Part shown: one piece after another, positions 1 through 64,000 of the stretch | Position numbering within the stretch: the stretch's first letter is position 1 | Layout: each line of letters begins with the position of its first letter | IMG/VR virus record: IMGVR_UViG_2740892439_000009 | DNA length: 64,000 bases | From: a virus | Lineage: Duplodnaviria > Heunggongvirae > Uroviricota > Caudoviricetes | Reading direction: 5' to 3' (one strand) | Position numbers and translations under genes: made by a program | The notes under the pieces: model-generated | The model's input: the letters and a program-made list of their open reading frames with translations, nothing else | Told to the model about the DNA's origin: nothing | The model's database searches: none

Positions 1-3000
1 GCCGGCAGTTACGTGATCGCGCATTACAAAGCCTTCGTGAAAGTCAATGCTGATACCACCATCACTATGGCACCAGGGTCTCGTGTTTTTGATGATACGG
101 GCGCCGTGTACGTGAACGGTGTTAGGGTTGCCTTTGGTAATGCGAGCTGGAATACGGTTAGCTTTGATCTGAAAGCTGGCTGGAGCACGGTTGAGTTCTT
201 GGTGAACCAATGGACTGGTCAGGCTTACATTAACCTCGGCTTTAAACTGTCCGAGAAGGTAGCCCAGCTGAATTCTGCTCTTGGGATGAACGCGCTTTCG
301 AATGCCATTAGCGCCGTCACCTCAAACGTCAGCACCGTAGGTGATCGCGTCACGAGCACCTCACAGAGCGTTACTGACCTGCGAAATAGCCTCGAACAGA
401 CCAACGCAAATCTAGCGAATAAGGCAGATGCACAGGCGCTGTCTACGCTGCAAAATACGGTCTCCAAGCAGGGGGATACGATTTCCAGCCAGGGTAACAG
501 CATCACGAACCTGAATAACACCCTGACCGCTGCCAGAAACGCCGGTGACAACCTGATCCCGAACTACGATTTCCTGCAGGGTGCAACTGCGTGGGATATC
601 CAGTATCCGGCGGGCGTCGCTTTTGGCAACTTCGGTGATGGTAAGGCTGGGGTTAAGCTGAACCGGACGACCACGACCAGCCCAGGCATCTTCTCCAACA
701 ACAACAAGCCGCTGCCGCTTAATGGTCAGCGCAAATATCGTGTTGTGGTTAAAGCCAAGGGCGTGTCCGGGGCGATGAACATGTTGATCCGGCGCCAGAA
801 CAAAATCGGCCAGACCGACAGCAATTATGAAGATAAAAACGTCACACTCACCAGTGAGTGGCAGACCATTACCTGGGAAACTGGGCTTACTGCCTCTAAC
901 GCTGATGGTCAGAACTTTAAGCTTTACGCGCACCCGGCTAATGCCGAAATCTGGGTTGATACCTTTAAGGTCTTTGATATCACGGATGAGGTGAAGATCA
1001 AGGCTAATAGCGATGCGCTGTCTACGTTGTCGAGCACGGTGACGCAGCAGGGTGACAAGATCACCAGTCAGGGCAACAGCATCACTAAGTTGACCAATGA
1101 CCTCGAAGTCGCTGACGCAAACATCGCGAAAAAGGCCGATCAGTCGGCAGTCACTACGCTGACAGGTCGGGTAGAGAAGACGGAGTCCGGTCTGACGGCG
1201 GCGAACAGCAACATTACGTCGCTCAGCAGCTCTCTGAACCAGCAATCCAAACGCGGCGCCAATCTGCTTCCTGATGGCACTTTTGAAAGCTACGCGGTTG
1301 GCCATAATCTATCAAATAATCGCGTTATCGTGACCACTGATGACTCGCATGGCGGTAGTAAGTGCATCCGTGTGACGCGTCCGAATGATTACAACGCTAA
1401 CGCAACTGATAACAGCGATAATCACATTTTCAGCGGGTTCCAGGTTCGCGATAACGCAGTCTTCTATATGGAATGCTGGGTTAAGCTGGATGCCAAGAGC
1501 ACCGCTATGGCCGAGAATGCGCAGATCTCCATTGGCTTGTCGCTCCAGTATCAGGATAACTCCTGGCAGTGGCCAGCAGTAACCAAAGCGGCGAAAGATC
1601 TGTCTACAGCTCAATGGACGAAGGTTTCTGGTTACCTGAAATCAACGAAGAGCGGTATTAAGCAGGCAATGGTGAGGATTTCTATTCCTAACGTTAGCAG
1701 CGTTAAGGCGGGAAACTCATTCCTCATTGATGACCTGGTCATTACCGAAGTGACTGATGCCTACAATGCGCAAAGTACAGCAGACGCTAATGCCAATGCG
1801 ATTTCGACACTGGACTCGACCGTCTCCCAACAGGGTGACCAGATCACCAGTCAGGGTAACAGCATCACCAAACTGACAAATGACCTGGCAACGACCAATA
1901 ACAACGTCAGTAAAAAAGCGGATCAGAGCGCTTTAAGCGTGTTGTCCGGGCGCGTCGATCAAACAGAATCGGGCTTATCCTCTGCGAATAGCAGTATCAC
2001 TGCGCTTAATTCATCTGTACGCGCAGGGAATGCGACAAGTGGCGATTTGATTAGCAACCCGACATTTGACCCAGAGTTTAGTCAGATGGGCTTCACTGTG
2101 GTTTCCAGCTCGTCTGAGGGCGTGCCAGCCAATTGCCCATACGCTTATGTTGCACGCATTGCGGCTCGCGACCATCACCCCAATTTTGCTGCTATTCCGG
2201 CGACATTGGGGGATGTCTATGAAATGTCTGCTCTCGTCGCGTGTGGCACCGGCTCCGCTGATTTCAACCTGTATCTCGGAACCGCAACACGGCCAAGCGG
2301 CAGCGTGGGCGCGCCTCTGTCATCCGGCGGCAACCGCAAGGCGTCGGCCACATGGCAGCGAGTAACCTGGCGATTCAAAATTACTCAGGGGATTGTCGAT
2401 CGCGGCTTCTTCCGTCCATTCCTGCAAATTAACCAGTCCAGCCCATTCGGCACCGTCTGGTATGTGACTGACTGGCATCTGCGGAACGTGACCGACTCCT
2501 CCAAAGTCCAGGATTCCCTCGACGCCACGGCGAAAGCGGTTGATTCGCTGACCTCTACGGTAAATCAGCAGGGGGAGAATATCTCCAGCATTGGTACACG
2601 TACTACCAATCTTGAGAATAATTTGAGAACAACAAATGCAAACGTTGCTCAAAAAGCGGACGCCAATGCTCTGACGGCACTGACCAACCGTGTTACCCAG
2701 ACCGAAAAAGACATTAACTCAACGAGTTCTTCTGTCACGAATCTGAACAACAAGGTTGATGCCATTTCTGTTGGCGGTACAAACCTGATTAAGAACTCTG
2801 GCGATATGACCGGCTGGTCGAACGTTACCAGCGACACGTATCGTGGTAACGCGGTAATTGGCGCAACTGTAAAAGCCGGCTCCGGCTACAAGGATCTGCG
2901 GGAAATCACGCTTGAGTCGCCGGTCGATGCAGGTGAGTACGTTTACAGCTTCTATGCAAAAGGCGGTGTTGCTGGCCAGATTATGACGGCGTTCTTCTAC

Positions 3001-5424
3001 AATCCGAACACTACAACGTCTATCGAGACCAGCCAGGGTGCGAAAGGTAACAACAGTGATGGCCGTGCGCAGTTCACGCTGACCACTTCATGGTCCCGCT
3101 ATTGGGTTAAGTGGAAACAGACACCTACCACGAGTACCAAGCGCCTGATTCTGTGTCGTATCGAGAGCAATACCTCCAAAGACCAGACGGTGTACATCAA
3201 CAGTCCGAAGTTTGAGGTAGGTAACGTTGTTTCCGACTGGAACGAGTCTCCGTCTGATAGTGCCAGTGCGTCGGCTGTGGACTCGCTGACAACGAAAGTG
3301 AATCAGCAGGGCACTTCCATTAGCTCTATCGGAAATCGCACCACATCGTTGGAAAACGGGTTATCGACAGCTCAAAACAATATTGCCAAGAAGGCTGATG
3401 CTTCTGCATTGCAGGATCTCCGGAACACGGTGACATCTCAGGGTGATGATTTAACTGCGGCGAACAGCAGCATTACCAGCCTGCATGCCTCGATGAACCG
3501 TCGCACTGTGTTTACTGTCACTGCACGGGGTAATGGCAACAGCGTTACCCATGGGGTGTTTGATGAAAGCGGCAAGAATCTGTTTACCCCTGGTCGCAGC
3601 TGGGCGCTGGTCACTTTTGCAAAACACAGCGACGGATCAACGGTGATTGCGACCTCCAAAACATACGATGTCTTTGGCAGCGCGAATAATGGCGCCACGA
3701 TGTCGGCTGATATCGAGGCACTGGCCAGTGGGACTTACGTTTGCGTCCTGACATTCGATGAGCCAACTGGCAACCGAGGTAAGGTGTTGTCTGCCCTGGA
3801 ATCTCTTGGTGGCACTTCCGAAGTCGTTAACTCTCTGCCGTATCGTGGCGCCTACATTCTCCTTGGCCGCAAAGGTATGAAGCCGGGCGATGGTCTGGAA
3901 CTGCGTGCGCCAACCGGTGGCGACGGCACCGCCCACATTTCGACCTCAGTCGAGTTTGTGAACGGGGTAATGATGGGGCTGGGCGCCGCTGGTGGTGTGA
4001 TGATGAAGGCTGATGCGAACGCATCTGCAATTACCACGCTCCAGAATACAGTGAAGACCCAAGGGGATAATATTGACTCCCTGAGCTCCTCGACAACAGC
4101 GCTGGAAAACAGCCTTGCGTCCAGTAACGTCAGCGTGGATGCAGCAAGCCAGATCCCCGGTAACCTGATCGTAAACCCGTCTTTTGAGCGTGGTACGGAG
4201 GGCTACACTGGTTGGAGCGGTATTGCCACGGTGGCAACGCTGCAGGTTCCACATCTTGGCACCAAAGCCGCCAAACTAGCGGCGGGTGGTTCTGCAGGCG
4301 TGGGCCAGAAGATCTCCTTCAAAAAGGATCGGTCGTACAAAATTGGTATTTGGGCAAAGCAGGACCCTAATACCACCATTCAGTCGACCGACAACACAAA
4401 ATTCCGTGTGGCTGACGGTACTGGCCTGATTGCAAGTAAGGTTTATGGTCCGTTCACCTCGAACTGGCAGGAGGTGTCATGGACATGGAAGGCGACAAAG
4501 GATGTCCTTGCTGACGTTCAGTTCACTGCTTTCTTGTCAGCCGGCGCGATGTACTTTGATGATTTTTACGTCGTCGATGTGACCGACTCAGTTGAAACTC
4601 AGGCGAACTCGAGTGCGATCACGAAGCTCGATAGTCGTGTGACCAAGACAGAGAATGACATCACCAGCCAGGGCAGCCAGGTTACGCAACTTAAGAATGA
4701 CCTTGCTACCACAAACACAAATGTTTCGAAGAAAGCGGATGCAGCTGCGTTAACGGCATTAACGAACCGCGTCACGCAGAATGAGAAAGAAATTGGAACC
4801 CAGAGCAGCCAGACAACTTCGCTCAAAAACTCTTTGAGCACTGTTCAGGCAATGGGAAGCAACCCGTGGTTTGATGGTTCTCTGGAGACGTACTCCGAAA
4901 ACCAGCAGATCAGCGGCTCGCGCGCGGTCGTCGTCAGCTCTCAGAAACGAAGCGGAACGAAGTCGTTGCGTGTTTCCCGCGGCGCCGGTGAGGGCGGAAA
5001 CAGCGATAAAACCATCGGTAAGTGGATTGCTCTGCGTGAAAATGCGGTATTCCGCATTGAACTCTGGGCGATGATGCCGGCAGATCAGTCGCCATCATCC
5101 GGGTGGTCAACGCTCGTTGGTTTGCAGACCCAAAACGCTGCCAACAACAATAACTGGCCGACGGCAATCACTATCAATGAAGCCGCATTGGGTGCAAGAG
5201 GCGCATGGAAGAAATTCACCGGTACGCTCCGTGTAGCCGCTGGCCACACTCGCGGCGCATTTTGGGTATCTACCGCGGCACAACTGGCACTGGTACACCG
5301 GGGTATGATCTGTATATCGATGACGTTGTTGTCACCGATATCACCGACGCAAAAGAGGCTCAAGATTCGGCTAATTCGAACGCATCCGCGCTCACCAGCC
5401 TTACCTCACGTGTTACCAATGTAG
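1..5424 (+). CDS. Lateral (L-shaped) tail fibre protein, LtfA-like; 5'-partial upstream segment, frame lost near 5270
   Basis: Frame open from base 1. About 8 diverged tandem modules, each with a coiled-coil stretch (QQGDxITSQGNSITKLTNDL..KKADQSAL) followed by a beta-rich domain ending in (F/Y)xDDxxVxDVTD. The last ~50 codons of this frame look like nonsense. Confidence 0.75.
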   Translation, partial: AGSYVIAHYKAFVKVNADTTITMAPGSRVFDDTGAVYVNGVRVAFGNASWNTVSFDLKAGWSTVEFLVNQWTGQAYINLGFKLSEKVAQLNSALGMNALSNAISAVTSNVSTVGDRVTSTSQSVTDLRNSLEQTNANLANKADAQALSTLQNTVSKQGDTISSQGNSITNLNNTLTAARNAGDNLIPNYDFLQGATAWDIQYPAGVAFGNFGDGKAGVKLNRTTTTSPGIFSNNNKPLPLNGQRKYRVVVKAKGVSGAMNMLIRRQNKIGQTDSNYEDKNVTLTSEWQTITWETGLTASNADGQNFKLYAHPANAEIWVDTFKVFDITDEVKIKANSDALSTLSSTVTQQGDKITSQGNSITKLTNDLEVADANIAKKADQSAVTTLTGRVEKTESGLTAANSNITSLSSSLNQQSKRGANLLPDGTFESYAVGHNLSNNRVIVTTDDSHGGSKCIRVTRPNDYNANATDNSDNHIFSGFQVRDNAVFYMECWVKLDAKSTAMAENAQISIGLSLQYQDNSWQWPAVTKAAKDLSTAQWTKVSGYLKSTKSGIKQAMVRISIPNVSSVKAGNSFLIDDLVITEVTDAYNAQSTADANANAISTLDSTVSQQGDQITSQGNSITKLTNDLATTNNNVSKKADQSALSVLSGRVDQTESGLSSANSSITALNSSVRAGNATSGDLISNPTFDPEFSQMGFTVVSSSSEGVPANCPYAYVARIAARDHHPNFAAIPATLGDVYEMSALVACGTGSADFNLYLGTATRPSGSVGAPLSSGGNRKASATWQRVTWRFKITQGIVDRGFFRPFLQINQSSPFGTVWYVTDWHLRNVTDSSKVQDSLDATAKAVDSLTSTVNQQGENISSIGTRTTNLENNLRTTNANVAQKADANALTALTNRVTQTEKDINSTSSSVTNLNNKVDAISVGGTNLIKNSGDMTGWSNVTSDTYRGNAVIGATVKAGSGYKDLREITLESPVDAGEYVYSFYAKGGVAGQIMTAFFYNPNTTTSIETSQGAKGNNSDGRAQFTLTTSWSRYWVKWKQTPTTSTKRLILCRIESNTSKDQTVYINSPKFEVGNVVSDWNESPSDSASASAVDSLTTKVNQQGTSISSIGNRTTSLENGLSTAQNNIAKKADASALQDLRNTVTSQGDDLTAANSSITSLHASMNRRTVFTVTARGNGNSVTHGVFDESGKNLFTPGRSWALVTFAKHSDGSTVIATSKTYDVFGSANNGATMSADIEALASGTYVCVLTFDEPTGNRGKVLSALESLGGTSEVVNSLPYRGAYILLGRKGMKPGDGLELRAPTGGDGTAHISTSVEFVNGVMMGLGAAGGVMMKADANASAITTLQNTVKTQGDNIDSLSSSTTALENSLASSNVSVDAASQIPGNLIVNPSFERGTEGYTGWSGIATVATLQVPHLGTKAAKLAAGGSAGVGQKISFKKDRSYKIGIWAKQDPNTTIQSTDNTKFRVADGTGLIASKVYGPFTSNWQEVSWTWKATKDVLADVQFTAFLSAGAMYFDDFYVVDVTDSVETQANSSAITKLDSRVTKTENDITSQGSQVTQLKNDLATTNTNVSKKADAAALTALTNRVTQNEKEIGTQSSQTTSLKNSLSTVQAMGSNPWFDGSLETYSENQQISGSRAVVVSSQKRSGTKSLRVSRGAGEGGNSDKTIGKWIALRENAVFRIELWAMMPADQSPSSGWSTLVGLQTQNAANNNNWPTAITINEAALGARGAWKKFTGTLRVAAGHTRGAFWVSTAAQLALVHRGMICISMTLLSPISPTQKRLKIRLIRTHPRSPALPHVLPM

Positions 5425-6581
5425 AAGGGCAGGTGACATCCCAGGCGTCTCAGCTGTCCTCTTTGACGTCCCAGGTGAATGATGCGTCTTCGAAGGTTGA
5501 TCAGATGGCGCAAACCATCACCAACAACGAGAAAACGCAGTCGTCGCTGAATACCAGCTTGCAGTCGCAAATTGATGCGCAGGCATCGGCAAACATCAAG
5601 AACCAGACGGAGTTGAATAACGCCACCACTTCGATGGCGGCAATTAAATCAACTCAGCAGACTCAGGCCACAACGATTAGTGCACTGTCTCAGCAGCAAA
5701 CGAATTTAACGGCCCAGGTAGGAGGCCAGTCAGCCGAGCTGCAGGAGCTGAAGAAAACGGTTGTTGAAAACGGCAACGTTAACAGCACCTGGATGGTCAA
5801 AATGGAAACCAACAGCAACGGTAAAAAGTATGCTGCTGGTATAGCTTTAGGTATCGATGGCAAAAATTTGCAGAGCCAGTTTCTGGTTCAGGCTGATCGC
5901 TTCGGCTTAATCAACACCTCTAACGGGAATACGACTACACCTTTCGTTATCGAAAATGGCGTTGCGTATATTAATGCCGCTGTCATTAAAGATGGCTCGA
6001 TCACCAATGCGAAAATTGGAGGCGAAATCCGTTCTGACAATTTCGTTAATGGTTCAAATGGCTGGAGAATTGGAAAAGACGGTAGTTCACAGTTCAACAA
6101 TGCGATATTCAGAGGTCATATTGAAGCGCGCAGTGGTACGTTCAAAGGAACCCTGGAAGCTCAAAACTTTATTGGTGATATCGCTGTAGCTCGGCGTTAT
6201 GCGGATTTATCGTTCCGTCGTAACAACACCGTACAGCGTGATGGTCGTTACCAGAACCGCGGATACGGTATGACTATTGTGCTAAGTTGTACCCTGATAT
6301 ATCAGGTTACTGGGGGGAATGAGGATCGTAACGGTTATATTGTTGAAATGACATTTAACGTTGGCGGTCAGGAGGTAACTCGCCGTTTCCCGATCAACCC
6401 GCGAATGAATATGGGCTCCTACTCGATGGAGTTTCGTTTTGCAGCGGATATTCCAGGCAACTATGACAACGTCCCGTTCTTTGTAAGAGCACGTGGTCGG
6501 GATGCTACTTGGGACTACCAGTGTTATGTAGAAAACATCACTGCCACTGCTTTCCGTACAAACAGCAACTCATTCAGCTAA
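5205..6581 (+). CDS. LtfA continuation in the -1 frame (C-terminal coiled-coil and distal tip domain)
   Basis: This frame carries the expected module end TGTGTPGYDLYIDDVVVTDITDA, then a further coiled-coil repeat and a beta-rich C-terminal domain. A hairpin GGCGCCCC..GGGGCGCC follows the stop. Confidence 0.7.
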   Translation: MEEIHRYAPCSRWPHSRRILGIYRGTTGTGTPGYDLYIDDVVVTDITDAKEAQDSANSNASALTSLTSRVTNVEGQVTSQASQLSSLTSQVNDASSKVDQMAQTITNNEKTQSSLNTSLQSQIDAQASANIKNQTELNNATTSMAAIKSTQQTQATTISALSQQQTNLTAQVGGQSAELQELKKTVVENGNVNSTWMVKMETNSNGKKYAAGIALGIDGKNLQSQFLVQADRFGLINTSNGNTTTPFVIENGVAYINAAVIKDGSITNAKIGGEIRSDNFVNGSNGWRIGKDGSSQFNNAIFRGHIEARSGTFKGTLEAQNFIGDIAVARRYADLSFRRNNTVQRDGRYQNRGYGMTIVLSCTLIYQVTGGNEDRNGYIVEMTFNVGGQEVTRRFPINPRMNMGSYSMEFRFAADIPGNYDNVPFFVRARGRDATWDYQCYVENITATAFRTNSNSFS

Positions 6582-6637: not shown

Positions 6638-6708
6638 ATGGCAATGTATGAAGTTGGCACCATAACGGGTGCTGCAAACCAGGCAAAGGTTACAGGTATT
6701 TCCACTAA
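6638..6708 (+). CDS. N-terminal segment of second tail fibre (LtfB-like), separated from the body by a -1 frame change
   Basis: ATG preceded by AAGGAAG; encodes MAMYEVGTITGAANQAKVTGISTK, a fibre-like N-terminus. The downstream ORF in the -1 frame opens exactly here. Confidence 0.45.
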
Positions 6709-8076
6709 GTGTCGGAGACCGCCCTGGGTATTCAAGAGGGTTCGATTCTTGTCATTTATCGCAATGGAAGTGCCGATCTGTATGCCATCAAATCCGTTAA
6801 TAACGACACTCAACTGACCCTGACGAGAAACATTACAACAGCTTTTTCTGGTGCGAAATATGGAATTATCACATCAGAAACAGCCAGCACATCGTCTTTT
6901 GCTAATCAACTCGCCAGTGCATTCACTCTGTGGCGTAATGTTGTCCAGGGGTGGTCTACAGCACTAACAGGTAGTGGCAATATTACAATAACAGACCCTT
7001 TAACGGGTGTATCTGTGACTGTTCCAGCAATTTCAGGAATGGCGAAAGCGTCCGATCTCACAGCACTTAGCAACTCGCTGAAAGATGTAGCGAAGACTAC
7101 AACGGCAAACACATGGACGCAGGCGCAGACGTGGAACGCAGCATCTACGTTTAAAAATAACCTTACGGTGAACGGCACTTTTACAGTAAATGGGAATTTC
7201 TACGGCAAGCAGCTTGCTGGAGGCCACATAGAGTTAACAGGGGCGACCCCTTATATCGACTTTCACCACGGCAACACCACAACAGACTACACACATCGAA
7301 TTATTACTGAGAATGGGGCATTGGCTGTTTATCCGGGCTTACGCGTCCGTGGTGGATTGGGGATTTATGGTGTAGCTACGCAATACGGAGATCAGTACGG
7401 GCAGGGATTTATCACCCGTCTTAACACAGATCCAGGTAACGTAGCTAACGGCACAATCATTGCCTCTCCACGCGTCACAACTAGGTTCAACACTCGCGGC
7501 AGTGACACAAATGTTGACGGCGGACAGGGGGCCATGTGGTTTGAGGAGCAGGTGGGGACGAACCATAGGCTGGTATTCATGCTTGGTGGTTTCAGTCAGC
7601 CTGTCCAATATTGGCAACACTTGCCTGATGGGCGGATCTATAGTAGTTCTCGCGGCGATGTTGCATTTAACGGGACGTCCGACGAACGGTTGAAACATAG
7701 TATAGAACCGACTGACGGCCATTTGTCAGTCGATCGCATTCGTCAGCTTGAGCTGGTGACGTTCGTCTATAACGATGACGAGCAGGAACGAGTACGCCGC
7801 GGGATTATTGCGCAGCAGGCTCAGCTGGTCGACAAACAGTATGTTAAGCAGATTAACACATCGTATATTCTCAACGGTGAGAAAGTGGACGATGACCGTC
7901 TGCAACTCGATAATAACGTTATTCTAATGGATACATTGGCGGCGGTTAAAGTACTGATTCAGCGAGTTGAAGAACTTGAGAATAAACTTAACTCATCAGA
8001 AGGGAGCGACGCCATAAATACAAACCAGAATACCTTCGATACAGGCGTGGCCATGAGAAGTGAGCAATCAAATTAA
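6709..8076 (+). CDS. Tail fibre protein with C-terminal intramolecular chaperone (peptidase S74-type) domain
   Basis: C-terminal SDERLKHSIEP..IRQLELVTFVYNDDEQERVRRGIIAQQAQ matches the autoproteolytic chaperone signature of phage fibres and endosialidases; glycine-rich beta region upstream. Confidence 0.8.
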   Translation: MSETALGIQEGSILVIYRNGSADLYAIKSVNNDTQLTLTRNITTAFSGAKYGIITSETASTSSFANQLASAFTLWRNVVQGWSTALTGSGNITITDPLTGVSVTVPAISGMAKASDLTALSNSLKDVAKTTTANTWTQAQTWNAASTFKNNLTVNGTFTVNGNFYGKQLAGGHIELTGATPYIDFHHGNTTTDYTHRIITENGALAVYPGLRVRGGLGIYGVATQYGDQYGQGFITRLNTDPGNVANGTIIASPRVTTRFNTRGSDTNVDGGQGAMWFEEQVGTNHRLVFMLGGFSQPVQYWQHLPDGRIYSSSRGDVAFNGTSDERLKHSIEPTDGHLSVDRIRQLELVTFVYNDDEQERVRRGIIAQQAQLVDKQYVKQINTSYILNGEKVDDDRLQLDNNVILMDTLAAVKVLIQRVEELENKLNSSEGSDAINTNQNTFDTGVAMRSEQSN

Positions 8077-15159: not shown

Positions 15160-16098
15160 ATGACCGAACTTTGCCATACAGGACGCGGGCTGTCCGAAGA
15201 GTTTGATGAAGATTTCCAGAACAGACTGACGGCATATTTTTGTCGTGATCACGAGTTTCTTACTCGTGCGGGAGATCTGGTTGTGCCTAGCCAATTTGCC
15301 AATGCGGCCAATGCCATATTGGTTAATATGGTTTCGGGCTATTACCGTATGTACAAGAGCGCGCCTTCTTCATCTGCGATTCTGGATATGCTTAAGCGCG
15401 CGAAACGCGATAAGACCATCCGTGAGGAACTCTTCCCGGATGTTGTTGCTGCGTTTAAGCGCATCCTTGCAGAAAAATTGTCTGATACCTCGTACATGGT
15501 TGACCAGGTATCCACATTCGCAAAAAGTGTAGCGTTTGATGATGCTCTGATTAAAGCTGCTGAACTGAAAGAGAAGGGCGACTTTCAGGGGGCGATGGCA
15601 ATCATGGCCAAGGTTCAGCAGATAGGCTCGAACGAAGCGACCGGAATCTATGACTACTACACCTCCGCAAGTGAGCGATTGAAAGCGCGTGAATATGAGG
15701 CTTCAGAGGAGTATGTGCCAAACAGCATTACAACTGGACTCCCTCTGCTTGATAGATTGCTGTACCAAAAAGGCTGGGCGAAGCGTGAAATGGTGCTCTT
15801 CATGGGGTTCGCTAAATCCGGTAAATCGACCGCAATGGGTGAGTTTTCCATAAACGCAACACTTGCTGGCTACAATGTTCTGTATCTCTCGCTGGAGGTT
15901 CACACCACCATTTTATCCGACCGTTTTGATGCAAGATTGTCGGAGACAGAAATGTCCAGGCTGGTGGAACGGCGCGATGAGGTTCATCGTAAGTTGGCAG
16001 AGTTGGGAGCACGAAGGGGATTGGTAGTTTGTGGGTGGTTGAGCGTCCGTCAGGAAGTATGTCACCGGCAGATCTGGACCGTATGCTTAACAGCATGA
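15160..16098 (+). CDS. DnaB-like replicative helicase, N-terminal segment with Walker A (frame lost near 16020)
   Basis: ITTGLPLLDRLL..GFAKSGKST resembles the DnaB Walker A region; conserved start context AAAGGAAAGCACATG. Confidence 0.75.
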   Translation: MTELCHTGRGLSEEFDEDFQNRLTAYFCRDHEFLTRAGDLVVPSQFANAANAILVNMVSGYYRMYKSAPSSSAILDMLKRAKRDKTIREELFPDVVAAFKRILAEKLSDTSYMVDQVSTFAKSVAFDDALIKAAELKEKGDFQGAMAIMAKVQQIGSNEATGIYDYYTSASERLKAREYEASEEYVPNSITTGLPLLDRLLYQKGWAKREMVLFMGFAKSGKSTAMGEFSINATLAGYNVLYLSLEVHTTILSDRFDARLSETEMSRLVERRDEVHRKLAELGARRGLVVCGWLSVRQEVCHRQIWTVCLTA

Positions 16099-16499
16099 AA
16101 GCCAACGGCATGGTGCCTGATATGGTTGTTGTCGACTACGCAGATTTGATGCGTGCCAGTTATGACCTTCGTGATGATCGCGCCAACATTCGTAGTATCT
16201 ACACCGATTTACGTGCTCTTTATGACAAACATAACGTTGCTGGAATCACGGCATCGCAGACAAACCGTGAAGGTGGCGCGTCAGAAGTTGCCACAATGAT
16301 GCACGCCGCCGACAACATCGAAAAAGTACGTATTGCTGACCTGGTAATAACGATCAACAAAACCGAAGAAGAAGAAGCGAAAGGAGAGGCTCGTCTCTAC
16401 TTTGCTGGTTCACGTAACCAGCAGGGAGGGATCAGCATTCGTGTTAAACAAAACCTCGAACAAATGCGCTTCATTGAGCGAATCTTAGACGTTACCTAA
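16029..16499 (+). CDS. DnaB-like helicase C-terminal segment (-1 frame)
   Basis: DMVVVDYADLM and QTNREGG motifs typical of the DnaB C-terminal RecA-like domain. Confidence 0.7.
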   Translation: MWVVERPSGSMSPADLDRMLNSMKANGMVPDMVVVDYADLMRASYDLRDDRANIRSIYTDLRALYDKHNVAGITASQTNREGGASEVATMMHAADNIEKVRIADLVITINKTEEEEAKGEARLYFAGSRNQQGGISIRVKQNLEQMRFIERILDVT

Positions 16500-27667: not shown

Positions 27668-29047
27668 ATGTCTAAAAAACGTTCCATCAAAGAGGTTCAG
27701 GACTTCCGTGACAGTGTAAAACGAGTAGTCGCTCTCCTTTCAGGTAAAAACATCCCTGTTGCAGAACGAGGGGACGACGCTTATGTACGCTATAACGATG
27801 ATGGAGAGCCAATTCTCGTAAACATCCCATCAATCCCGGATAACGCAACACCGGCATTGATGAATGCTGTGCGCGGATTTCTCGATCATGAGGTTGCTCA
27901 CATTTTGTTTACCGATATTCGTGTGTCCAACAAAATGAGAGAAAAAGGACGCGTTCCTTCCTGGTCGCTATGGAATGCCTTAGAAGACGTGTTCATCGAG
28001 CGAAAAATGGGGCAGGTCTTTAACGGAACAAGACGTAATCTGATGGCAACTCAGCGCCTTATAATCGAAAAAGTCTTTAAACCAAAGGCTTCAGAGGCTA
28101 TTGCTTATTGTGGCAAAGATCAGCGCGCGCTTTTTCTAAACTTCTTTCTCTGTCCGGTTGTAAGAGCCTGGGATGGCCAAGCACCGTTCGTAGATTTCAT
28201 GGATGAATATTGGCCTGTCATTGAGAAACCAATTTCATTATTAAAAGAACATGGTATCGATGTGGCCGTGCGTAACATGTCTTGCACCGAGGATTGTGTA
28301 AAGGTGGCTGCGACCATAGCTAAGATCCTCAAAGACACTGAAAGTGAAAGCAAAGGTAAGGAGTCAGCTCCGGGAAAAACTTCCGATCCTTCAGACGCTG
28401 ACCAGACGGATGCCTCTGGAGAAAACAATGAAGACAACGAAGATCATGAGACACCCTCATCGTTAGATAATCACAAATCTATCGAATCAGAATCACATAG
28501 TAAGCACAAACATGATAATAACGACAGCGATGATTCAGATAATTCTGAATCATCAGAAACAATATTCGATGATACAGAAAATGATAAAGAGGTATCAGAT
28601 TCTGATGCTTCTGATAACGCGGCGTCAGAATCATTAACCGCTGACCACGAAAAAAGAAAAACGACAGAAGACGGCTCTTCAGATATCCCAACTCCGTCAA
28701 AAATGAGTCTGGAAGAGGCTTTAGAGGAGCTGGATAGCATAGAAGATGAAGTCGGAGGCATGACAGAAGATGCTCTATCCGAAACGATTAAAAGCGAGTT
28801 AACAGAAAGCTCGAAAAGCGAATACAGGCCATACAATCGCTCATACGACTTCATCGGCTCGATTGATCAGGCAGAAGCCATATCAAACGGCTTATTAAAA
28901 CATTCTCCGATATTGATTTGGGAGGATATCCAATCAGCCGCTATCGCATCGTTCCTGAAGGCAACCAGCTCTTCGACAAATATATTGAAAAGCATCTTTC
29001 GTCAGGTGTTTCGTCGACGCTGGCAAAAGACCTGGAGCGAGCAATAG
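27668..29047 (+). CDS. CobT-like protein, N-terminal segment with acidic low-complexity linker (frame lost near 28915)
   Basis: Paired with a downstream vWA segment and a CobS-like AAA ATPase; highly acidic D/E/S-rich middle region. Confidence 0.5.
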   Translation: MSKKRSIKEVQDFRDSVKRVVALLSGKNIPVAERGDDAYVRYNDDGEPILVNIPSIPDNATPALMNAVRGFLDHEVAHILFTDIRVSNKMREKGRVPSWSLWNALEDVFIERKMGQVFNGTRRNLMATQRLIIEKVFKPKASEAIAYCGKDQRALFLNFFLCPVVRAWDGQAPFVDFMDEYWPVIEKPISLLKEHGIDVAVRNMSCTEDCVKVAATIAKILKDTESESKGKESAPGKTSDPSDADQTDASGENNEDNEDHETPSSLDNHKSIESESHSKHKHDNNDSDDSDNSESSETIFDDTENDKEVSDSDASDNAASESLTADHEKRKTTEDGSSDIPTPSKMSLEEALEELDSIEDEVGGMTEDALSETIKSELTESSKSEYRPYNRSYDFIGSIDQAEAISNGLLKHSPILIWEDIQSAAIASFLKATSSSTNILKSIFRQVFRRRWQKTWSEQ

Positions 29048-29775
29048 CAAGCAGAAACAGAGTTCAGTTTATACCGGGCCAGCGTCGGGGGCGCATTCAT
29101 GGTTCTAGTATCTACAGATTAGCAATGAATGATGATCGCGTGTTTCGTAAAAAAGAAGAATCTAAAGCCGTTAACGCCTGTGTTCAACAAGTGATTGATT
29201 TATCAGGTTCAATGAGTGGTATAACGATACAATTGGCTCTTGCAAGTGCATATACCATCGCCGATGCCCTTGATCGAATAAATGTTCCCAACATTATCAC
29301 CGGCTTCACTACATTTGGTAGTCATATGGCGGCAGGAGAACTTAAGGCTGTCAAGTATGAGTTCTCTCGCTTTGAATCTTTAATGCTACCTATCATCAAA
29401 AATTGGAATGAAAAGGTAAATTCTCGCGAAGTTCGCTCACGTATGGGGTGCGTAGGCTACACATTCCCACTTCTTAATAACGTGGATGGTGAAAGCATAG
29501 CCAGCCTTGCATCGTTATTTTCCGGTCGCATGGAGGACAGGAAGATCATGCTTGTTCTGAGTGACGGCGCGCCGTGGGCTGTTGGGAGAGGTTTTGACGC
29601 TCATTTGCGTTCGGTTGCGAAGCAAATTGAAACGCAGACTGACATTGATTTGATGGCAATTGGCATCATGACTGACGCACCGGAGAGATTTTACTCAAAT
29701 CATGCCCTGGTAACGAGCGTTGATAGTCTTGGTTCATCTGTAGTTACTGAACTATCTCGTATCATTTTGAAGTGA
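28918..29775 (+). CDS. von Willebrand factor A domain segment (CobT-like C-terminus, -1 frame)
   Basis: MIDAS motif VIDLSGSMSG. Confidence 0.65.
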   Translation: MGGYPISRYRIVPEGNQLFDKYIEKHLSSGVSSTLAKDLERAIASRNRVQFIPGQRRGRIHGSSIYRLAMNDDRVFRKKEESKAVNACVQQVIDLSGSMSGITIQLALASAYTIADALDRINVPNIITGFTTFGSHMAAGELKAVKYEFSRFESLMLPIIKNWNEKVNSREVRSRMGCVGYTFPLLNNVDGESIASLASLFSGRMEDRKIMLVLSDGAPWAVGRGFDAHLRSVAKQIETQTDIDLMAIGIMTDAPERFYSNHALVTSVDSLGSSVVTELSRIILK

Positions 29776-38378: not shown

Positions 38379-38452
38379 GGAAGGAGTGTACCGGTGAATT
38401 ATCTCTTCGTAGATGGCAATAGCTGGGTTATTACCACCAACAATCTGACAAA

Positions 38453-39337
38453 TTGCACAACGGCGAAATGGAAGTACAGGCTGCTTTCGGCTTTGTTAAG
38501 AACGTCCGTCGTTATGCCTCCATCCTCCATGCCCGACCTATGATTCTTTGGGATGGATTTAGTGACAAGCGTCGCGACTTTTACCCGGACTACAAAGCAA
38601 ATCGCGACGACGATCCTGATATGAAAAAGATGAAGGAAGGCTTTGCTATCCAGAAGCCATACATCCTCAAAATGATGACCGCGCTTGGAGTTACCCAACT
38701 CATTGCAAAAGATGCAGAAGCGGATGATCTGGCCGGGCTGCTGGTATCCCGCATGGCACCGCAGCCAACCGTTGAACACATCTATCTGTTAACAGGCGAT
38801 AGCGACTGGCTTCAGTTAGTTCGCGAAAACGTAAGCTGGGTAAGCCTGCGCGAAGACGCCAAAAACAAGCAGGTTAATTTTGAGCAATTTGCGGAGCTGA
38901 CAGGATTCGCTACTCCTCGCGCATTTTTGGAAGCAAAAGCATTACAAGGCGATAAATCGGACAACATTAGCGGTGTTGGTGGCATTGGTGCTGGCGGTGC
39001 GAAAGAGCTGCTGCATGAATGGGGAAGTGTCGCAACGATGGTACGCGGCATCAACGACGGCTCAATCGTGGTTGACAAAGGACGCCATAAGACCGCCTTC
39101 AACAAACTAGCGAAGAATGCCTTCAACGAGAAAACAGGCTGTCGAATGCTCGAAGCGTTCAAGAGAAACATCACGCTAATGAACCTGATTGAGACGAAGT
39201 TTCCGCCTACCGAAATCGAAACAATCAAAGGCAATCGTGACGTGAAAGCATTCGAGCAACTGTGCTACGAGCTGAATTTCCGTTCGTTCCTTGAAGACCT
39301 TGAAGTGTTTGTTCTTCCATTCGAAAGGTATTGCTAA
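38453..39337 (+). CDS. 5'-3' exonuclease / flap endonuclease (FEN); N-terminal about 20 codons lie in another frame starting at GTG about 38394
   Basis: Matches the Pol I 5'-exonuclease domain pattern; the upstream frame encodes NYLFVDGNSW (FEN N-terminal motif) with AAGGAG SD. Confidence 0.8.
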   Translation: MHNGEMEVQAAFGFVKNVRRYASILHARPMILWDGFSDKRRDFYPDYKANRDDDPDMKKMKEGFAIQKPYILKMMTALGVTQLIAKDAEADDLAGLLVSRMAPQPTVEHIYLLTGDSDWLQLVRENVSWVSLREDAKNKQVNFEQFAELTGFATPRAFLEAKALQGDKSDNISGVGGIGAGGAKELLHEWGSVATMVRGINDGSIVVDKGRHKTAFNKLAKNAFNEKTGCRMLEAFKRNITLMNLIETKFPPTEIETIKGNRDVKAFEQLCYELNFRSFLEDLEVFVLPFERYC

Positions 39338-40975: not shown

Positions 40976-41074
40976 ATGAAGAAAGGTTTACTTGCAGTTG
41001 CTCTGGCGGCTATTTGCACAATGGGTCTTACTGGCTGTGATCGCGTGGAGCTGGATACGTTGGCATCAAAGTAA
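40976..41074 (+). CDS. Lipoprotein signal-peptide segment, probably the true N-terminus of the SPFH protein
   Basis: MKKGLLAVALAAICTMGLTGC lipobox; the SPFH frame opens immediately downstream in the -1 frame. Confidence 0.4.
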   Translation: MKKGLLAVALAAICTMGLTGCDRVELDTLASK

Positions 41075-41106
41075 ACAAATTAGGTGAAGACAAAGGGATT
41101 GGTGAA

Positions 41107-41805
41107 GTGGTTGGCGTTGGTCGCCAATGGACAGGTCTTAACACCGAACTTTACGTATTCCCAACCTTCAAACAAATGAAGACCTACGACGAGCCGTTCA
41201 CATTCCAGATGAGTGACGGTACTGCTATTGGTCACAAAATTGGCGTTGCGTATCTGGTTAATCGTGACAAGGTAACGACGGTGTTCCAGACCTATCGCAA
41301 AGGCGTAGACGATATCACCGAATCAGATCTGCGTCAGAAAATTGCCGACTCTCTAAACCGTTTGGCCAGCCGTATGACCACTGATTCATTTATCGACGGT
41401 GGTAAGGCGCAATTGCTGGACAACGCACTTAAAGATATTCAGAAAGAGATGTCTCCGGTTGGTATTGAGGTACTGAGCCTGTCATGGGTTGGAAAACCTG
41501 ATTACCCAAAAACCGTCATTGAATCTATCAACGCCAAAGTAACGGCTAACCAGCGTACTCTGCAACGTCAGCAGGAAGTTGAACAGCGTAAAGCTGAGGC
41601 GAATATGCTACGTGAACAGGCTAATGGTGAAGCTGATGCTATCCGTGCTCGTGCGCAAGCAGAAGCAGACGCCATTCGTCTGCGCGGTGAAGCTCTGCGT
41701 CAAAACCCGAACGTTATGGAGCTGGAAGCCATCAATAAATGGAATGGCCAGTTACCGCAGTACATGACTCAAGGGGCTAACACTCCTTTCATTACAGTGA
41801 AATAA
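41107..41805 (+). CDS. SPFH/band-7 (stomatin/prohibitin-like) domain protein
   Basis: In-frame upstream GYVGIKVNKLGEDKGIGEVVGVGRQW is the canonical SPFH N-terminus; coiled-coil C-terminus. Confidence 0.7.
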   Translation: MVGVGRQWTGLNTELYVFPTFKQMKTYDEPFTFQMSDGTAIGHKIGVAYLVNRDKVTTVFQTYRKGVDDITESDLRQKIADSLNRLASRMTTDSFIDGGKAQLLDNALKDIQKEMSPVGIEVLSLSWVGKPDYPKTVIESINAKVTANQRTLQRQQEVEQRKAEANMLREQANGEADAIRARAQAEADAIRLRGEALRQNPNVMELEAINKWNGQLPQYMTQGANTPFITVK

Positions 41806-42872: not shown

Positions 42873-43204
42873 AGGCCATCCCATTCGCGCTGTTGTTCCT
42901 TTCTTCGATCGTTGTGGCCGACACCACTGTTTATCAGTGTGAAATGTCTGTAGCCGACGTTAAGAATGGCGCTCTTACCGACGTCATAAAAGCACCATAT
43001 GGAGCGATGGTCGTAGACAGCGGCGACCAGTTCTATGTTGTGCGTGACGATCGAGTATTGTCATCCCCATATCTCACAAACCGTAATGGCAAATTAACCG
43101 GCGTCGGAGAAGACCACTTCGTATACAATAAATACAAGGGCTTCTATGGCGTTCACGCTTCTCAGCAAAGCTACCTTTTCGATGACTGCAAGGAGGTTGG
43201 ATAA
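42869..43204 (+). CDS. Secreted/periplasmic protein, hypothetical
   Basis: N-terminal signal peptide MKAIPFALLFLSSIVVA. Confidence 0.5.
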   Translation: MKAIPFALLFLSSIVVADTTVYQCEMSVADVKNGALTDVIKAPYGAMVVDSGDQFYVVRDDRVLSSPYLTNRNGKLTGVGEDHFVYNKYKGFYGVHASQQSYLFDDCKEVG

Positions 43205-43461
43205 TGGCATTAACACTGGCAGGTCTGGAAATCGAGAAAACAAGCGGCTACTGGCGTGCTAAGGGTTTCAAGCAGCCTGGCATTCTTGAGCGTCTGGAAC
43301 GTGAAGATGGGTATATCGTCCACCAGCGGCGTGAATGGCGTATGTACGATCCAGAAACAGGAAACTGACTACAAAAGCCGGAACACTTTGGGGTCTGTTA
43401 AAGAAAATACACTAAATGCAAACTGACTGCGGCACGTTCCGCAGTCATATTTCATAGTCGT

Positions 43462-50926: not shown

Positions 50927-52135
50927 ATGATAAGCATCGTAAAACGTAACGGCCAAACAGAGCCGTTATCCGAAGAAAAATACAACCGCGTCGTAATGTA
51001 TGGCGTAGAAGGCATTCGTGGCGTAAGCGCATCCGCTGTAGCAATGGGAGCTGTGGCCAGCATTTTTGATGGGATGACCACCAGCCAGTTGCATGAGGCT
51101 TTGGTTAAATCTGCCGCTGATTTGATCTCACCAGAAGCACCAAATTACTCACAGGTGGCTGCCCGCCTGAACATTTTTAAAATCCGCAAAGATGCCTTCG
51201 GTCGTTACGACTATCCGAACTTCTACCAACACATTGTCAAGAACGTTAACAAGGGCGTTTATGACAAGGATTTGCTGACACATTATTCATTTGAAGAGAT
51301 CGAAGAACTCGGCAATTACATTAAGCCTAAACGTGACGATCTTTTTGGCTATGCGGCTACGGTGCAATTGCAAAGCAAATACCTCGTTCAAAACCGTGTT
51401 ACTGGTGAGATTCATGAGGGGCCGCAACATATCTATATGCTGGTGGGCATGTGTCTGTTCCAGAATTGGGAAGACGACTGCGCTGGCAAAACACGTATGG
51501 AGATGGTCAAAGGTTTCTATGACGTTACAAGTACGTTCAAACTGTCTCTGCCCACACCAATCATGGCCGGCGTCCGTACTCCAACCCGTCAGTTCTCCAG
51601 TTGTGTGCTGATTGAGTCTGGCGATAGTCTGAAAGGGATTAGTGCAGCTTCAGCCGCAATTATCGACTACGTTTCACGTCGTGCTGGAATTGGTATTGGT
51701 TTTGGCCGTATCCGTGCGCTGGGCAGCGAGATCCGCAATGGTGAAGCCACCCATACCGGAGTTATTCCATTCCTGAAGCATTTCCAGACTGCTGTTAAAT
51801 CTTGCTCGCAAGGTGGTGTCCGTGGTGGCGCAGCAACAGCGTTTTACCCGATCTGGCATCTTGAAGTTGAAAGTCTGCTGGTGGTGAAAAATAACCGTGG
51901 TATCGATGAAAACCGCGTTCGCCATCTTGATTACGGCGTCATGAGTAACCGTCTGATGTACCGTCGACTCGTCAGAAGCGAGAACATCACTCTGTTCAGC
52001 CGCATGATGTGCCTGATATGTACGAAGCCTTCTTCACAGACCAGGATCTGTTTGAAAAGCTGTACCATAAATACGAAGCCGATGATTCAATTCGCAAGAA
52101 GTCAGTACCTGCCATTGAGCTGTTCTCATCTCTGA
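50927..52135 (+). CDS. nrdA: Ribonucleotide reductase class Ia alpha subunit NrdA, N-terminal segment (frame lost near 51990)
   Basis: High similarity in pattern to E. coli NrdA through ENITLFS, then nonsense. Confidence 0.85.
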   Translation: MISIVKRNGQTEPLSEEKYNRVVMYGVEGIRGVSASAVAMGAVASIFDGMTTSQLHEALVKSAADLISPEAPNYSQVAARLNIFKIRKDAFGRYDYPNFYQHIVKNVNKGVYDKDLLTHYSFEEIEELGNYIKPKRDDLFGYAATVQLQSKYLVQNRVTGEIHEGPQHIYMLVGMCLFQNWEDDCAGKTRMEMVKGFYDVTSTFKLSLPTPIMAGVRTPTRQFSSCVLIESGDSLKGISAASAAIIDYVSRRAGIGIGFGRIRALGSEIRNGEATHTGVIPFLKHFQTAVKSCSQGGVRGGAATAFYPIWHLEVESLLVVKNNRGIDENRVRHLDYGVMSNRLMYRRLVRSENITLFSRMMCLICTKPSSQTRICLKSCTINTKPMIQFARSQYLPLSCSHL

Positions 52136-53241
52136 TGCAGGAACGAGCGTCCACGGGCCGAATTTATATTGCGAACGTCGATCATATTAACGAGCATGGC
52201 GCTTTCATTCCTGCTCTTGCACCTGTTCGCCAGTCAAACCTGTGTATGGAGATCACTTTACCTACTCGTCCACTGACATTTACCGACGACCCGAACGGTG
52301 AGATCGCGCTGTGCACTTTATCCGCTTTTAACCTCGGAGCCATTCGTTCACTGGAGTCTCTTAAAGAGGTGGCATTCTATGCCGTTGCTGCACTGGATTC
52401 GTTACTGGATTATCAAGACTATCCGATGGAGGCAGCCGAAGTGCCTGCCAAAGCTCGTCGTAGCTTGGGAATTGGTGTAACCAACTTTGCTTATTACCTG
52501 GCAAAGAATGGCGTTCGTTATTCTGATACCGCTGGCAATAAACTGGTGCATGAAACGTTCGAAGCTATCCAGTATTACCTTCTTGATGCCAGCTGCCGAC
52601 TTGCTGAAGCAAAAGGTGAGTGTGACTGGTTTGAGCAGACCAAGTACGCAATTGGTCAGTTGCCGATCGACCATTACCGTTCTTCATTAGACGAAAGTGG
52701 CGAAACCAACTTTGAGTTAAAGATGCCGTGGGAAGAACTGCGTGAACGTATTGCAAAATACGGCCTTCGCAACTCCACACTGACGGCACAAATGCCATGC
52801 GAGACTTCCAGCCAGATCACTAATTCCACCAACGGCATCGAACCGCCTCGTGGCCCGGTGTCGGTGAAATCTTCTAAGGACGGCATCGTTAAGATGGTCG
52901 TGCCTGAGTTTGAAAAACTGAAGGAACAGTATGAATACCTGTGGGATATGCCGGACAACCGCGGCTATCTGACAAAGGTGGCGATCATCCAGAAGTTCTT
53001 TGACCAGGCTATTTCAGCCAATACCAACTATGACCCTTCTCGCTTTGAAGGCGATAAAGTCCCAATGATGACGCTACTGTCAGATTTGCTTCTCGCCTAC
53101 AAGATGGGAGTTAAAACGCTTTACTACCACAACACCAGAGATGGGGCAGGAAAGCGTGATGACGACGAACCGCAAAATCCACTGACGCAAGCTGTAGCCG
53201 TCGAGCCAGAAGATGAGTGCGACGGAGCCTGCAAAATCTGA
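52009..53241 (+). CDS. nrdA: NrdA C-terminal segment (-1 frame)
   Basis: Continues the E. coli NrdA pattern from DVPDMYEAFF to the C-terminal CDGACKI. Confidence 0.85.
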   Translation: MPDMYEAFFTDQDLFEKLYHKYEADDSIRKKSVPAIELFSSLMQERASTGRIYIANVDHINEHGAFIPALAPVRQSNLCMEITLPTRPLTFTDDPNGEIALCTLSAFNLGAIRSLESLKEVAFYAVAALDSLLDYQDYPMEAAEVPAKARRSLGIGVTNFAYYLAKNGVRYSDTAGNKLVHETFEAIQYYLLDASCRLAEAKGECDWFEQTKYAIGQLPIDHYRSSLDESGETNFELKMPWEELRERIAKYGLRNSTLTAQMPCETSSQITNSTNGIEPPRGPVSVKSSKDGIVKMVVPEFEKLKEQYEYLWDMPDNRGYLTKVAIIQKFFDQAISANTNYDPSRFEGDKVPMMTLLSDLLLAYKMGVKTLYYHNTRDGAGKRDDDEPQNPLTQAVAVEPEDECDGACKI

Positions 53242-57126: not shown

Positions 57127-57599
57127 AGATGATAGCTGCTGTTGGCCGTAACTATGAGATCGGCATAGCGAACGAACTGCCCTGGCGTTGTTCTACCGAT
57201 CTGAAGCTATTTAAGAGACTCACCAAAAACGCCACTGTCGTTATGGGGCGTAAAACGATGGAAAGTCTCAAACGCCCTCTTCCAGAGCGTCATAACCTCG
57301 TTTTGACGCGCTCTCATGGCTTTGTACCAAATGGATTCTACCCTGCTGGTGTGGATGATGTGTTGCGATTACCAGAGCCTGTGTGGGTGATTGGCGGGGA
57401 ACAAATTTACTCGCTATTCATGCCGCATGTTGAAGAGATTTGGCTCTCCCACATCGGCGTTGATGTACCAAACGCCGATGCATTCTTCCCGGCAAGCATG
57501 ATGCGTAACTTAGGCTTTGTGCCTGTTGAAACAGCTTATACCCAACGAGCCAGCGAGGAAGAGCCTGGCTTTTCGCAGATCGTATACAGAAGGTCGTAA
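57123..57599 (+). CDS. folA: Dihydrofolate reductase
   Basis: IAAVGRNYEIG..LPW, VMGRKT, VIGG pattern of FolA. Confidence 0.85.
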   Translation: MKMIAAVGRNYEIGIANELPWRCSTDLKLFKRLTKNATVVMGRKTMESLKRPLPERHNLVLTRSHGFVPNGFYPAGVDDVLRLPEPVWVIGGEQIYSLFMPHVEEIWLSHIGVDVPNADAFFPASMMRNLGFVPVETAYTQRASEEEPGFSQIVYRRS

Positions 57600-63982: not shown

Positions 63983-64000
63983 TGCTTGAGAGATTCCGGC

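Follow-up and report, generated by a model that had tools for sequence, protein, structure and literature searches.

Enterobacteriaceae phage-plasmids of the SSU5/pHCM2/pLF82 type share a gene order that runs from tail genes, ParA, DnaB, primase, ligase, tRNAs, integrase, CobT and DnaE, through a gp32-like SSB, FEN, RecA, RepB and SbcCD, to NrdAB, ThyX and DHFR. The stretch of DNA that we analysed, called the window below (64,000 nt in full), has the same gene order; its identity to E. coli phage-plasmids and phage Cyrano is 98-99.9%, against about 77-82% for Salmonella phage SSU5. It differs from this type by ordinary allelic variation only (its tail-fibre allele, the insertion of a tRNA-Tyr and the lack of a RecA intein). 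The original prediction held that eight genes of the window are interrupted by -1 frame changes, and it attributed them to indel errors of sequencing or assembly, not to recoding. We found all eight breaks, seven in protein genes and one in tRNA-Thr, each being a one-base loss against the relatives with the downstream frame at -1 after it. Three further deletions had been missed, namely site 43361 in a gene for a 70-aa protein and the intergenic sites 31240 and 61057. As detailed below, the breaks are very probably Ion Torrent single-base sequencing errors in a draft E. coli phage-plasmid.

We traced the window to its source. Positions 26756-47187 match GenBank contig JUDV01000020.1 (GCA_001630855.1) at 100%, and by coordinates the end of the window corresponds to the end of that contig (81,989), the window being its final 64,000 nt. 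JUDV00000000 is E. coli RCE01, an isolate from a Crohn's patient, whose contig was termed pLF82-like in the source paper (PMC5517970); RCE02 and RCE04 of that study likewise harbour pLF82-like plasmids. The RCE01 reads were obtained on an Ion Torrent PGM (318 chip, 200-bp kit) and assembled with MIRA 4.0, and the GenBank assembly is a meta-assembly that pools reads of several (six) colonies from one patient (PMC5517970). Its authors reported artificial CDS frameshifts caused by homopolymer errors, and their correction lowered these errors about 2.5-fold, i.e. removed about 60% of them (PMC5517970). The contig match and the published platform together give the window the Ion Torrent origin that a homopolymer artefact of this kind calls for.

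Across the 64 kb, we counted 11 one-base deletions and one over-called A run, and the deletions hit eight protein genes and one tRNA. Each deletion site is named after the base just before the surviving run, and was compared with the relatives that cover it at 94% identity or more to the window. At 10 of the 11 sites every covering relative is intact (9 to 59 loci per site); the exception is nrdA site 51999, with 27 intact out of 28. As predicted, one extra base restores each product: the resulting protein is 100% identical to relatives in seven of the eight genes and 99.7% identical in the case of NrdA. Judging from the identity of the restored proteins, the downstream parts of the broken genes show none of the further degradation that would be expected of a pseudogene; no other lesion was seen in the broken genes either, whether a nonsense change, an IS element or a larger indel.

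All the broken genes lie on the + strand. The giant GpJ-like tail protein gene (1..6581; labelled LtfA in the original prediction), whose 5' end lies beyond the window, is split into ORFs 13-5424 and 5205-6581; in relatives it encodes a single GpJ-like protein of about 4052 aa. The window reads CC at 5273-5274 and 11/11 relatives read CCC (site 5272), and with the base restored a 2193-aa stretch is 100% identical to relative L137 across residues 75-2193. The tail fibre gene (6638..8076; predicted as LtfB; 479 aa, with a Peptidase_S74 domain in relatives) has a single G at 6711 in place of the GG present in 11/11 relatives (site 6710), and its restored product is 100% identical to those of L136, L137 and L139. 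The DnaB-like helicase gene (15160..16499; 446 aa in relatives) falls into the two ORFs 15160-16098 and 16029-16499 and has C at 16010 where 54/54 relatives have CC (GAG[C]CAC, with the missing base in brackets; site 16009). The base is carried by L232 (99.97% identity) and L230 (99.88%), and restoring it brings the ORF to 100% identity with relatives. An apparent deletion at 16009 in L150, like one at 41050 in L128, proved to be an alignment artefact from nearby substitutions, both loci being intact.

The CobT-like gene (27668..29775; 702 aa in relatives) is split into 27668-29047 and 28918-29775, with CC at 28878-28879 instead of the CCC (AAG[C]CCA) of 59/59 relatives (site 28877); once restored, the protein is 100% identical to that of L147. 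The gene for the 5'-3' exonuclease/FEN (38394..39337; 314 aa in relatives) is broken 29 nt into the gene, where C at 38423 replaces the CC (TAG[C]CTGG) of 43/43 relatives (site 38422), among them L147 (99.89% identity); with the base put back, the FEN ORF matches relatives at 100%. These two breaks exist as predicted, but had been placed about 38 nt (CobT) and 28 nt (FEN) too far downstream. In relatives, the predicted 'lipoprotein-SPFH' gene is a pair of genes, one coding for a membrane protein of 66 aa and the other for a Band_7 protein of 276 aa, of which the Band_7 gene alone (40976..41805) is broken: the window has C at 41051 and 41/41 relatives have CC (GAG[C]CTGG; site 41050), the restored ORF again being 100% identical to relatives. 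The 70-aa hypothetical protein (43204..43415) has a frameshifted C-terminus, with AAA at 43362-43364 against AAAA in 44/44 relatives (site 43361), and restoration makes it 100% identical to relatives. NrdA (50927..53241; 771 aa in relatives) is split into 50927-52135 and 52009-53241. Its missing base is one C of a CCC (CAG[C]CCG in 27/28 relatives; site 51999) that survives as CC at 52000-52001, exactly the AGCCG in which the original prediction had proposed to restore one C.

Three deletions lie outside protein genes. The tRNA-Thr(UGU) gene (22251..22325, + strand), whose break had only been called probable, is 75 nt long here and 76 nt in relatives according to ARAGORN, with C at 22277 where relatives have CC (GCG[C]CTGCC; site 22276). 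The intact 21-mer occurs in 28 loci, and no locus has the deleted 20-mer. The anticodon stem has 4 bp here vs 5 bp (CCTGC/GCAGG) in the intact form, and the Rfam tRNA model scores 62.6 bits here, compared with 76.5 bits in L230, which has the same Asn-Tyr-Thr tRNA arrangement with the C present. The remaining two sites are intergenic and have no strand. At 31241, upstream of dnaE, one G remains of GG (reverse complement AG[C]CTA; site 31240), and 41/41 relatives are intact; at 61058, following the N6-adenine methyltransferase gene, one C remains of CC (TAG[C]CTGC; site 61057), and 9/9 relatives are intact. The only probable over-call is an intergenic A10 run (25474..25483, no strand), which is A9 in 35/37 relatives.

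Compared with L232, L230 and L147, the window has indels only at the deletion sites and in two long A/T runs. These near-identical relatives (99.88-99.97% identity) were assembled elsewhere, and they are intact at every deletion site that they cover.

The deletions carry a pronounced context signature. All 11 fall in homopolymers of 2-4 bases (P ~1.5e-4 vs random placement), so that the predicted 'several' was an understatement, and 10 of the 11 are in C/G runs (P ~1e-3). Seven of these 10 are preceded by AG (AGCC -> AGC), compared with a 10% background (P ~9e-6), and the lone insertion sits in an A run. Homopolymer indels are what an artefact would leave. The Ion Torrent PGM is known to produce 'high frequency indel' (HFI) errors, which are tied to specific sites and mostly involve a single base (Bragg et al. 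2013, PMC3623719). Strand-asymmetric HFI errors occur mainly at 2-3-base homopolymers; HFI errors are possibly linked to motifs, are partly reproducible between runs and lead to frameshifts in assemblies (PMC3623719). The events in the window resemble them in being single-base indels at fixed positions in short homopolymers with partial reproducibility between assemblies. They differ from the PGM errors described by Bragg et al. (PMC3623719), among which insertions were commoner overall, in that 11 of the 12 events here are deletions; they also differ in their concentration at AG-CC(C), a bias measured on this window only. This bias may be a leftover of the authors' BLAST-guided polishing. A cause at Dcm sites (CCWGG), prompted by two AGCCTGG sites, was dropped since the other sites are not CCWGG.

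A second assembly allowed us to examine part of the window again. Logan contigs of run SRR1599274 cover 22608-35314 and 41051-62135, 33.8 kb in all, with 0 mismatches, compared with 17 mismatches in 20 kb for the nearest independent relative; this agreement suggests that SRR1599274 is an RCE01 run and the isolate the same. The two assemblies differ by one-base indels only, in both directions. Logan is intact at 31240 (contig L115), 43361 and 61057 (both L114), and has one A fewer than the window in the run at 25474 (A9 in L115), and it shares the deletions at CobT 28877 (L115) and nrdA 51999 (L114). Moreover, it has deletions of its own, all in C runs, at 26399 (TAG[C]CCAGG), where the integrase is interrupted, and at 49786 and 57341. 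Over the 33.8 kb, three deletions of the window are absent from Logan, two are shared and four are new, with one contig end at a site. Logan, the only second data set, apparently shares the window's error-prone source. Three lesions are contradicted by it, two agree, and it is uninformative at 5272, 6710, 16009, 22276, 38422 and 41050. Logan contig SRR1599274_80 terminates exactly at window position 41051, so site 41050 is represented there by a contig end only, and 5272, 6710, 16009, 22276 and 38422 lie outside the Logan contigs. We infer that these six sites share the error cause of the others.

Could the breaks nevertheless reflect biology? They are all present in the deposited sequence, and the NCBI record's gene calls are without product for CobT, FEN, Band_7 and the 70-aa gene, as would suit a decaying, defective phage-plasmid with many pseudogenes. 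We regard such decay as very unlikely. The second assembly, apparently of the same isolate, restores three sites and adds four indels (three C-run deletions and one A-run shortening); the broken genes show no other type of lesion, and their restored proteins match those of relatives. In addition, tRNA and intergenic DNA are affected at about the rate expected by chance, and the strong AG-CC bias indicates an artefact of chemistry or base calling. Pooling of several RCE01 colonies in the GenBank assembly (PMC5517970) would offer a different account, in which the seven sites of disagreement between window and Logan are real heterogeneity among the six colonies at phase-variable tracts. This too has very little to recommend it. 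Runs of 2-3 bases show no appreciable slipped-strand variation. No SNP heterogeneity appears across 33.8 kb, and the context bias of the events is platform-typical (PMC3623719).

Programmed -1 frameshifts are known from phages, tail assembly chaperones being one example, and the common -1 direction of the breaks would fit programmed ribosomal frameshifting or transcriptional slippage. Like the tail assembly chaperone genes G/GT, the split genes each consist of a pair of overlapping ORFs in a phage-like genome, the second ORF being shifted by -1. Unlike programmed frameshift genes, they have neither a slippery heptamer nor conservation, and non-coding DNA and a tRNA are hit by the lesion too. 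At the junctions, the sequence is cta^ccg, agt^gtc, gag^cac, aag^cca, tag^ctg, gag^ctg and cag^ccg; an X XXY YYZ heptamer or a long A/T run is found at 0 sites. Each gene occupies one frame in the relatives, with the one exception of a draft contig at nrdA, and since the same lesion is present in a tRNA and at two intergenic sites, translational recoding is inapplicable there. Recoding is refuted by the comparison of sequences, and we give it a vanishingly small chance.

Among the deletions, only those in CobT and nrdA keep a small chance of being real, and they are the one caveat to the attribution made by the original prediction, which is otherwise upheld by the platform, the disagreement of the second assembly, the hits in tRNA and intergenic DNA, the restored proteins and the intact near-identical relatives. 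Both deletions are found in the MIRA and Logan assemblies alike, and therefore cannot be assembler noise: they are either systematic errors at the level of the reads or real. If real, each would be a one-base deletion that turned a gene of the RCE01 plasmid into a pseudogene, and the CCC of nrdA would be a site of recurrent mutation. The E. coli host chromosome has its own nrdAB, which could make loss of the plasmid nrdA tolerable. The nrdA deletion is also present in an unrelated draft contig, IMG/VR 2617271087_000005 (98.7% identity), which differs by SNPs that lie 44 nt upstream of the deletion and 192 nt downstream of it. Against this, the deleted nrdA form occurs in 0 of 200 complete E. 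coli genomes and 0 of 172 PLSDB plasmids, in none of the JGI metagenome contigs compared with 15 matches for the intact form, and in 1 IMG/VR contig compared with 24 for the intact form. The deleted nrdA 40-mer was likewise not found in GTDB species representatives, and exact-junction scans of IMG/VR did not find the deleted 40-mers of FEN and SPFH. Furthermore, the CobT and nrdA sites have the same AG-CCC context as deletions shown to be artefactual, the parts downstream are undamaged (restored CobT-like protein and NrdA are as close to relatives as given above), and HFI errors of the PGM can recur, in part, from one run to the next (PMC3623719). We therefore consider it improbable that these two deletions are real. 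Were they so, this pLF82-like phage-plasmid of a Crohn's isolate would have lost its RNR large subunit (NrdA) and a CobT-like protein, and the AGCCCG run in nrdA, its deletion being shared with an unrelated draft contig, would be a recurrent deletion hotspot.

Sequencing error thus remains our preferred explanation, and its course may be pictured as follows. The PGM would have under-called short C/G homopolymers (CC -> C, CCC -> CC) at particular sites, preferentially after AG. Most reads at those sites would have carried the deletion, which would therefore have been retained in the consensus, and the BLAST-guided polishing by the authors would have cleared only part of such errors. The deletions are scattered regardless of coding, so that eight protein genes and one tRNA came to be broken.

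If the breaks are sequencing errors, as is very likely, there is no biology in them to explain, and the value of the finding is one of quality control only: the eight protein genes and the tRNA of this record should be read as intact. Taking the breaks for split genes, recoding sites or pseudogenes would lead any scan astray, and collections such as IMG/VR or Logan inherit such artefacts. The AG-CC(C) bias and the recurrence of the nrdA deletion are flags that could help to spot the same artefact in other drafts of the Ion Torrent era.

Alignment of the window with a panel of loci from annotated plasmids, IMG/VR contigs and NCBI/ENA/Logan contigs, eventually 229 in number, revealed eleven one-base deletions private to the window. 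Counted over relatives of at least 94% identity covering each site, the missing base is present in 11/11 relatives after positions 5272 (tail protein) and 6710 (tail fibre) alike, in 54/54 after 16009 (DnaB-like helicase), 59/59 after 28877 (CobT-like protein), 43/43 after 38422 (FEN), 41/41 after 41050 (SPFH (Band_7) protein), 44/44 after 43361 (a 70-aa gene, 43204-43415) and 27/28 after 51999 (NrdA). Two more deletions, after 31240 and 61057, are intergenic (intact in 41/41 and 9/9 relatives), and the one after 22276 lies in tRNA-Thr. All eight breaks of the original prediction, in seven protein genes and tRNA-Thr, are among these eleven, and in every coding case the alignment places the downstream frame at -1 relative to the upstream one. 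The predicted positions hold to within ~10 nt, except for CobT and FEN, whose breaks actually lie ~38 and ~28 nt upstream of where they had been put. Missed at that stage were the 70-aa gene at 43361, the intergenic sites at 31240 and 61057, and an A-run at 25474-25483, which has ten A in the window against nine in 35/37 relatives and in a contig of a second, Logan assembly (run SRR1599274), and is probably an error too. Two loci that had seemed to share deletions (L150 and L128) proved to be alignment artefacts, both being intact on checking. An exact k-mer census found the intact 21-mers in 8-69 loci and the deleted 20-mers confined to same-source contigs, the sole exception being the nrdA deletion, which also occurs in one IMG/VR contig.

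We then inserted one base per site, translated the stop-to-stop ORFs and compared them with independent relatives. The restored tail fibre, DnaB-like helicase, CobT-like, FEN, SPFH and 70-aa proteins showed 100% identity over their whole length. For the tail protein the identity was 100% over 2119 of its 2193 residues; for NrdA it was 99.7%. A single extra nucleotide per gene thus yields a continuous, homology-consistent product, as had been predicted, and the broken genes are therefore free of other damage.

The deletions share a sequence context. Short homopolymers, previously noted at several breaks, in fact hold all eleven deletions (runs of 2-4 bases; P ~1.5e-4 for random placement), and ten of the eleven are in C/G runs (P ~1e-3). 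In seven of these ten, AG precedes the C-run on the C strand, with AGCC becoming AGC or AGCCC becoming AGCC (at 16010, 28878, 31241 on the reverse complement, 38423, 41051, 52000 and 61058). The restored sequence has 5028 C-runs, of which only 10% show this context (binomial P ~9e-6). Only 7 of 501 AG-C-run sites are affected, so the process is a low-rate, context-biased one rather than an always-hit motif. The deletion junctions are all free of X XXY YYZ slippery heptamers and of long A/T runs.

A protein look-up with the window's own 143-aa protein led to the source assembly. Contig JUDV01000020.1 (81,989 bp; GCA_001630855.1) aligns to window 26756-47187 without a single mismatch or gap, and since window base 64000 falls by coordinates at its end, the window most probably represents its last 64,000 nt (17990-81989). 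Among its gene calls, CobT, FEN, Band_7 and the 70-aa gene have no listed product. The parent draft genome, JUDV00000000, belongs to E. coli RCE01 and pools six colonies isolated from a single patient with Crohn's disease; the reads came from an Ion Torrent PGM (318 chip, 200-bp kit v2), and MIRA 4.0 was the assembler (PMC5517970). Its authors stated that Ion Torrent homopolymer errors may produce artificial CDS frameshifts, reported that HomoHomo correction cut artificial indels by a factor of ~2.5, and described pLF82-like plasmid contigs in RCE01, RCE02 and RCE04 of the same study (PMC5517970). Besides flow under- and over-calls, the PGM makes "high frequency indel" errors, which are site-specific, for the most part single-base, possibly linked to sequence motifs and mostly, but not always, run-specific; of those that are strand-asymmetric, 82% occur in homopolymers of 2-3 bases, and in assemblies they cause "unresolvable differences or frame-shifts" (Bragg et al. 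2013, PMC3623719). Their rate, ~1 per kb of reference (PMC3623719), is compatible in order of magnitude with the ~1 per 5 kb remaining in the window after polishing.

A search of ~15 billion proteins found the fragments of frameshifted NrdA (402 aa) and CobT (459 aa) only in the Logan assembly of SRR1599274. Two of its contigs align to window 41051-62135 and 22608-35314 without mismatches, against 17 mismatches in 20 kb for the nearest independent relative, so the run would appear to come from the same isolate. One-base indels are the only differences. At 31240, 43361 and 61057 the Logan contigs retain the base that the window lacks, whereas at 28877 and 51999 they have the same deletions as the window. 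Their A-run at 25474 is one A shorter, and they carry deletions of their own at 49786, at 57341 in the dihydrofolate reductase gene, and at 26399, where TAG[C]CCAGG (bracketed base missing), in the same AG-C context, breaks the integrase. One of the contigs stops precisely at 41050/41051, as disagreement among the reads at this point would be expected to produce. Since indels in short homopolymers are all that separates two assemblies of one sample, and they go either way, these differences are read-level errors.

The nrdA deletion (51999-52001) is also present in IMG/VR contig IMGVR_UViG_2617271087_000005 (3531-3570), which has only 98.7% identity to the window. The nearest SNPs lie 44 nt upstream of the deletion and 192 nt downstream of it, and none of the other window deletions whose sites this contig covers is present in it. 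The deleted form was not found in 200 complete E. coli genomes or 172 PLSDB plasmids, and numbers 0 against 15 intact matches in JGI metagenome contigs and 1 against 24 in IMG/VR contigs. Most parsimoniously, the sequence context causes a systematic under-call each time a flow-based platform reads the nrdA or CobT sequence; that both deletions are real is quite improbable. Isolated split or frameshifted genes also occur in other assemblies of related plasmids: CobT is called split (272 + 357 aa) in a Logan contig of SRR9002277, and rnhA is annotated "frameshifted" in the finished plasmid NZ_AP022089.1 (31142-31802).

ARAGORN still calls tRNA-Thr, but with a length of 75 nt where four relatives have 76 nt. 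Its site reads GAGCGCTGCCTTGTAAGCAGG in the window and GAGCGCCTGCCTTGTAAGCAGG in relatives, and the missing C costs the CCTGC/GCAGG anticodon stem one pair. A relative with the same Asn-Tyr-Thr arrangement (L230; 99.88% identity over 20.5 kb) retains this C and scores 76.5 bits with the Rfam tRNA model, against 62.6 bits for the window. In these two, tRNA-Tyr(GTA) (22160-22246 in the window) lies between tRNA-Asn and tRNA-Thr; the close relatives L002, L005, L007 and L008 lack it, and only 2 nt separate Asn from Thr in them. tRNA-Thr also differs in its T-arm, by compensatory changes, GAGTCCGCT versus GATCCCGTT or GAATCCGTT.

By sequence comparison, the window can be assigned to the SSU5/pHCM2/pLF82-type phage-plasmids of Escherichia coli. 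It shows 98-99.4% identity to many E. coli plasmids (including pECAZ155_2, p503440_100 and pWP4-S18-ESBL-07_2) and phage Cyrano, and ~77-82% to Salmonella phage SSU5, with the same gene order throughout; no identical record was found in the phage, plasmid or complete-E. coli collections. RecA (39606-40679) is an intein-free 357-aa protein, in contrast to the 779-aa RecA of many relatives including Cyrano, whose intein bears a LAGLIDADG homing endonuclease. Upstream of the tRNA cluster, the intergenic segment 21497-21530 differs from most relatives by clustered small indels that make the window ~17 nt longer; as a minority of relatives have the same variant, it is a polymorphism and not an error. 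The dihydrofolate reductase (57123-57599) is annotated in the close relative NZ_AP022089.1 as trimethoprim-resistant DfrA51.

Could the breaks be genuine? Recoding is excluded: the junctions lack slippery sites, relatives do not conserve the two-frame arrangement, and a tRNA and intergenic DNA carry the same lesion. Wholesale pseudogenisation is contradicted by the disagreement of the second assembly, the absence of other lesion types and the AG-C context bias. Heterogeneity among the pooled colonies is an unlikely source of the indels, given runs of just 2-3 bases and no accompanying SNP heterogeneity.

The original observation thus holds and is slightly extended, and its attribution to sequencing or assembly indel error rather than programmed frameshifting is supported. 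The breaks are artefacts and not a real biological feature: they stem from a platform with a documented proneness to error, of which the authors of the source genome themselves gave warning. The AG-CC(C) bias could serve to recognise such artefacts in further drafts made with Ion Torrent.
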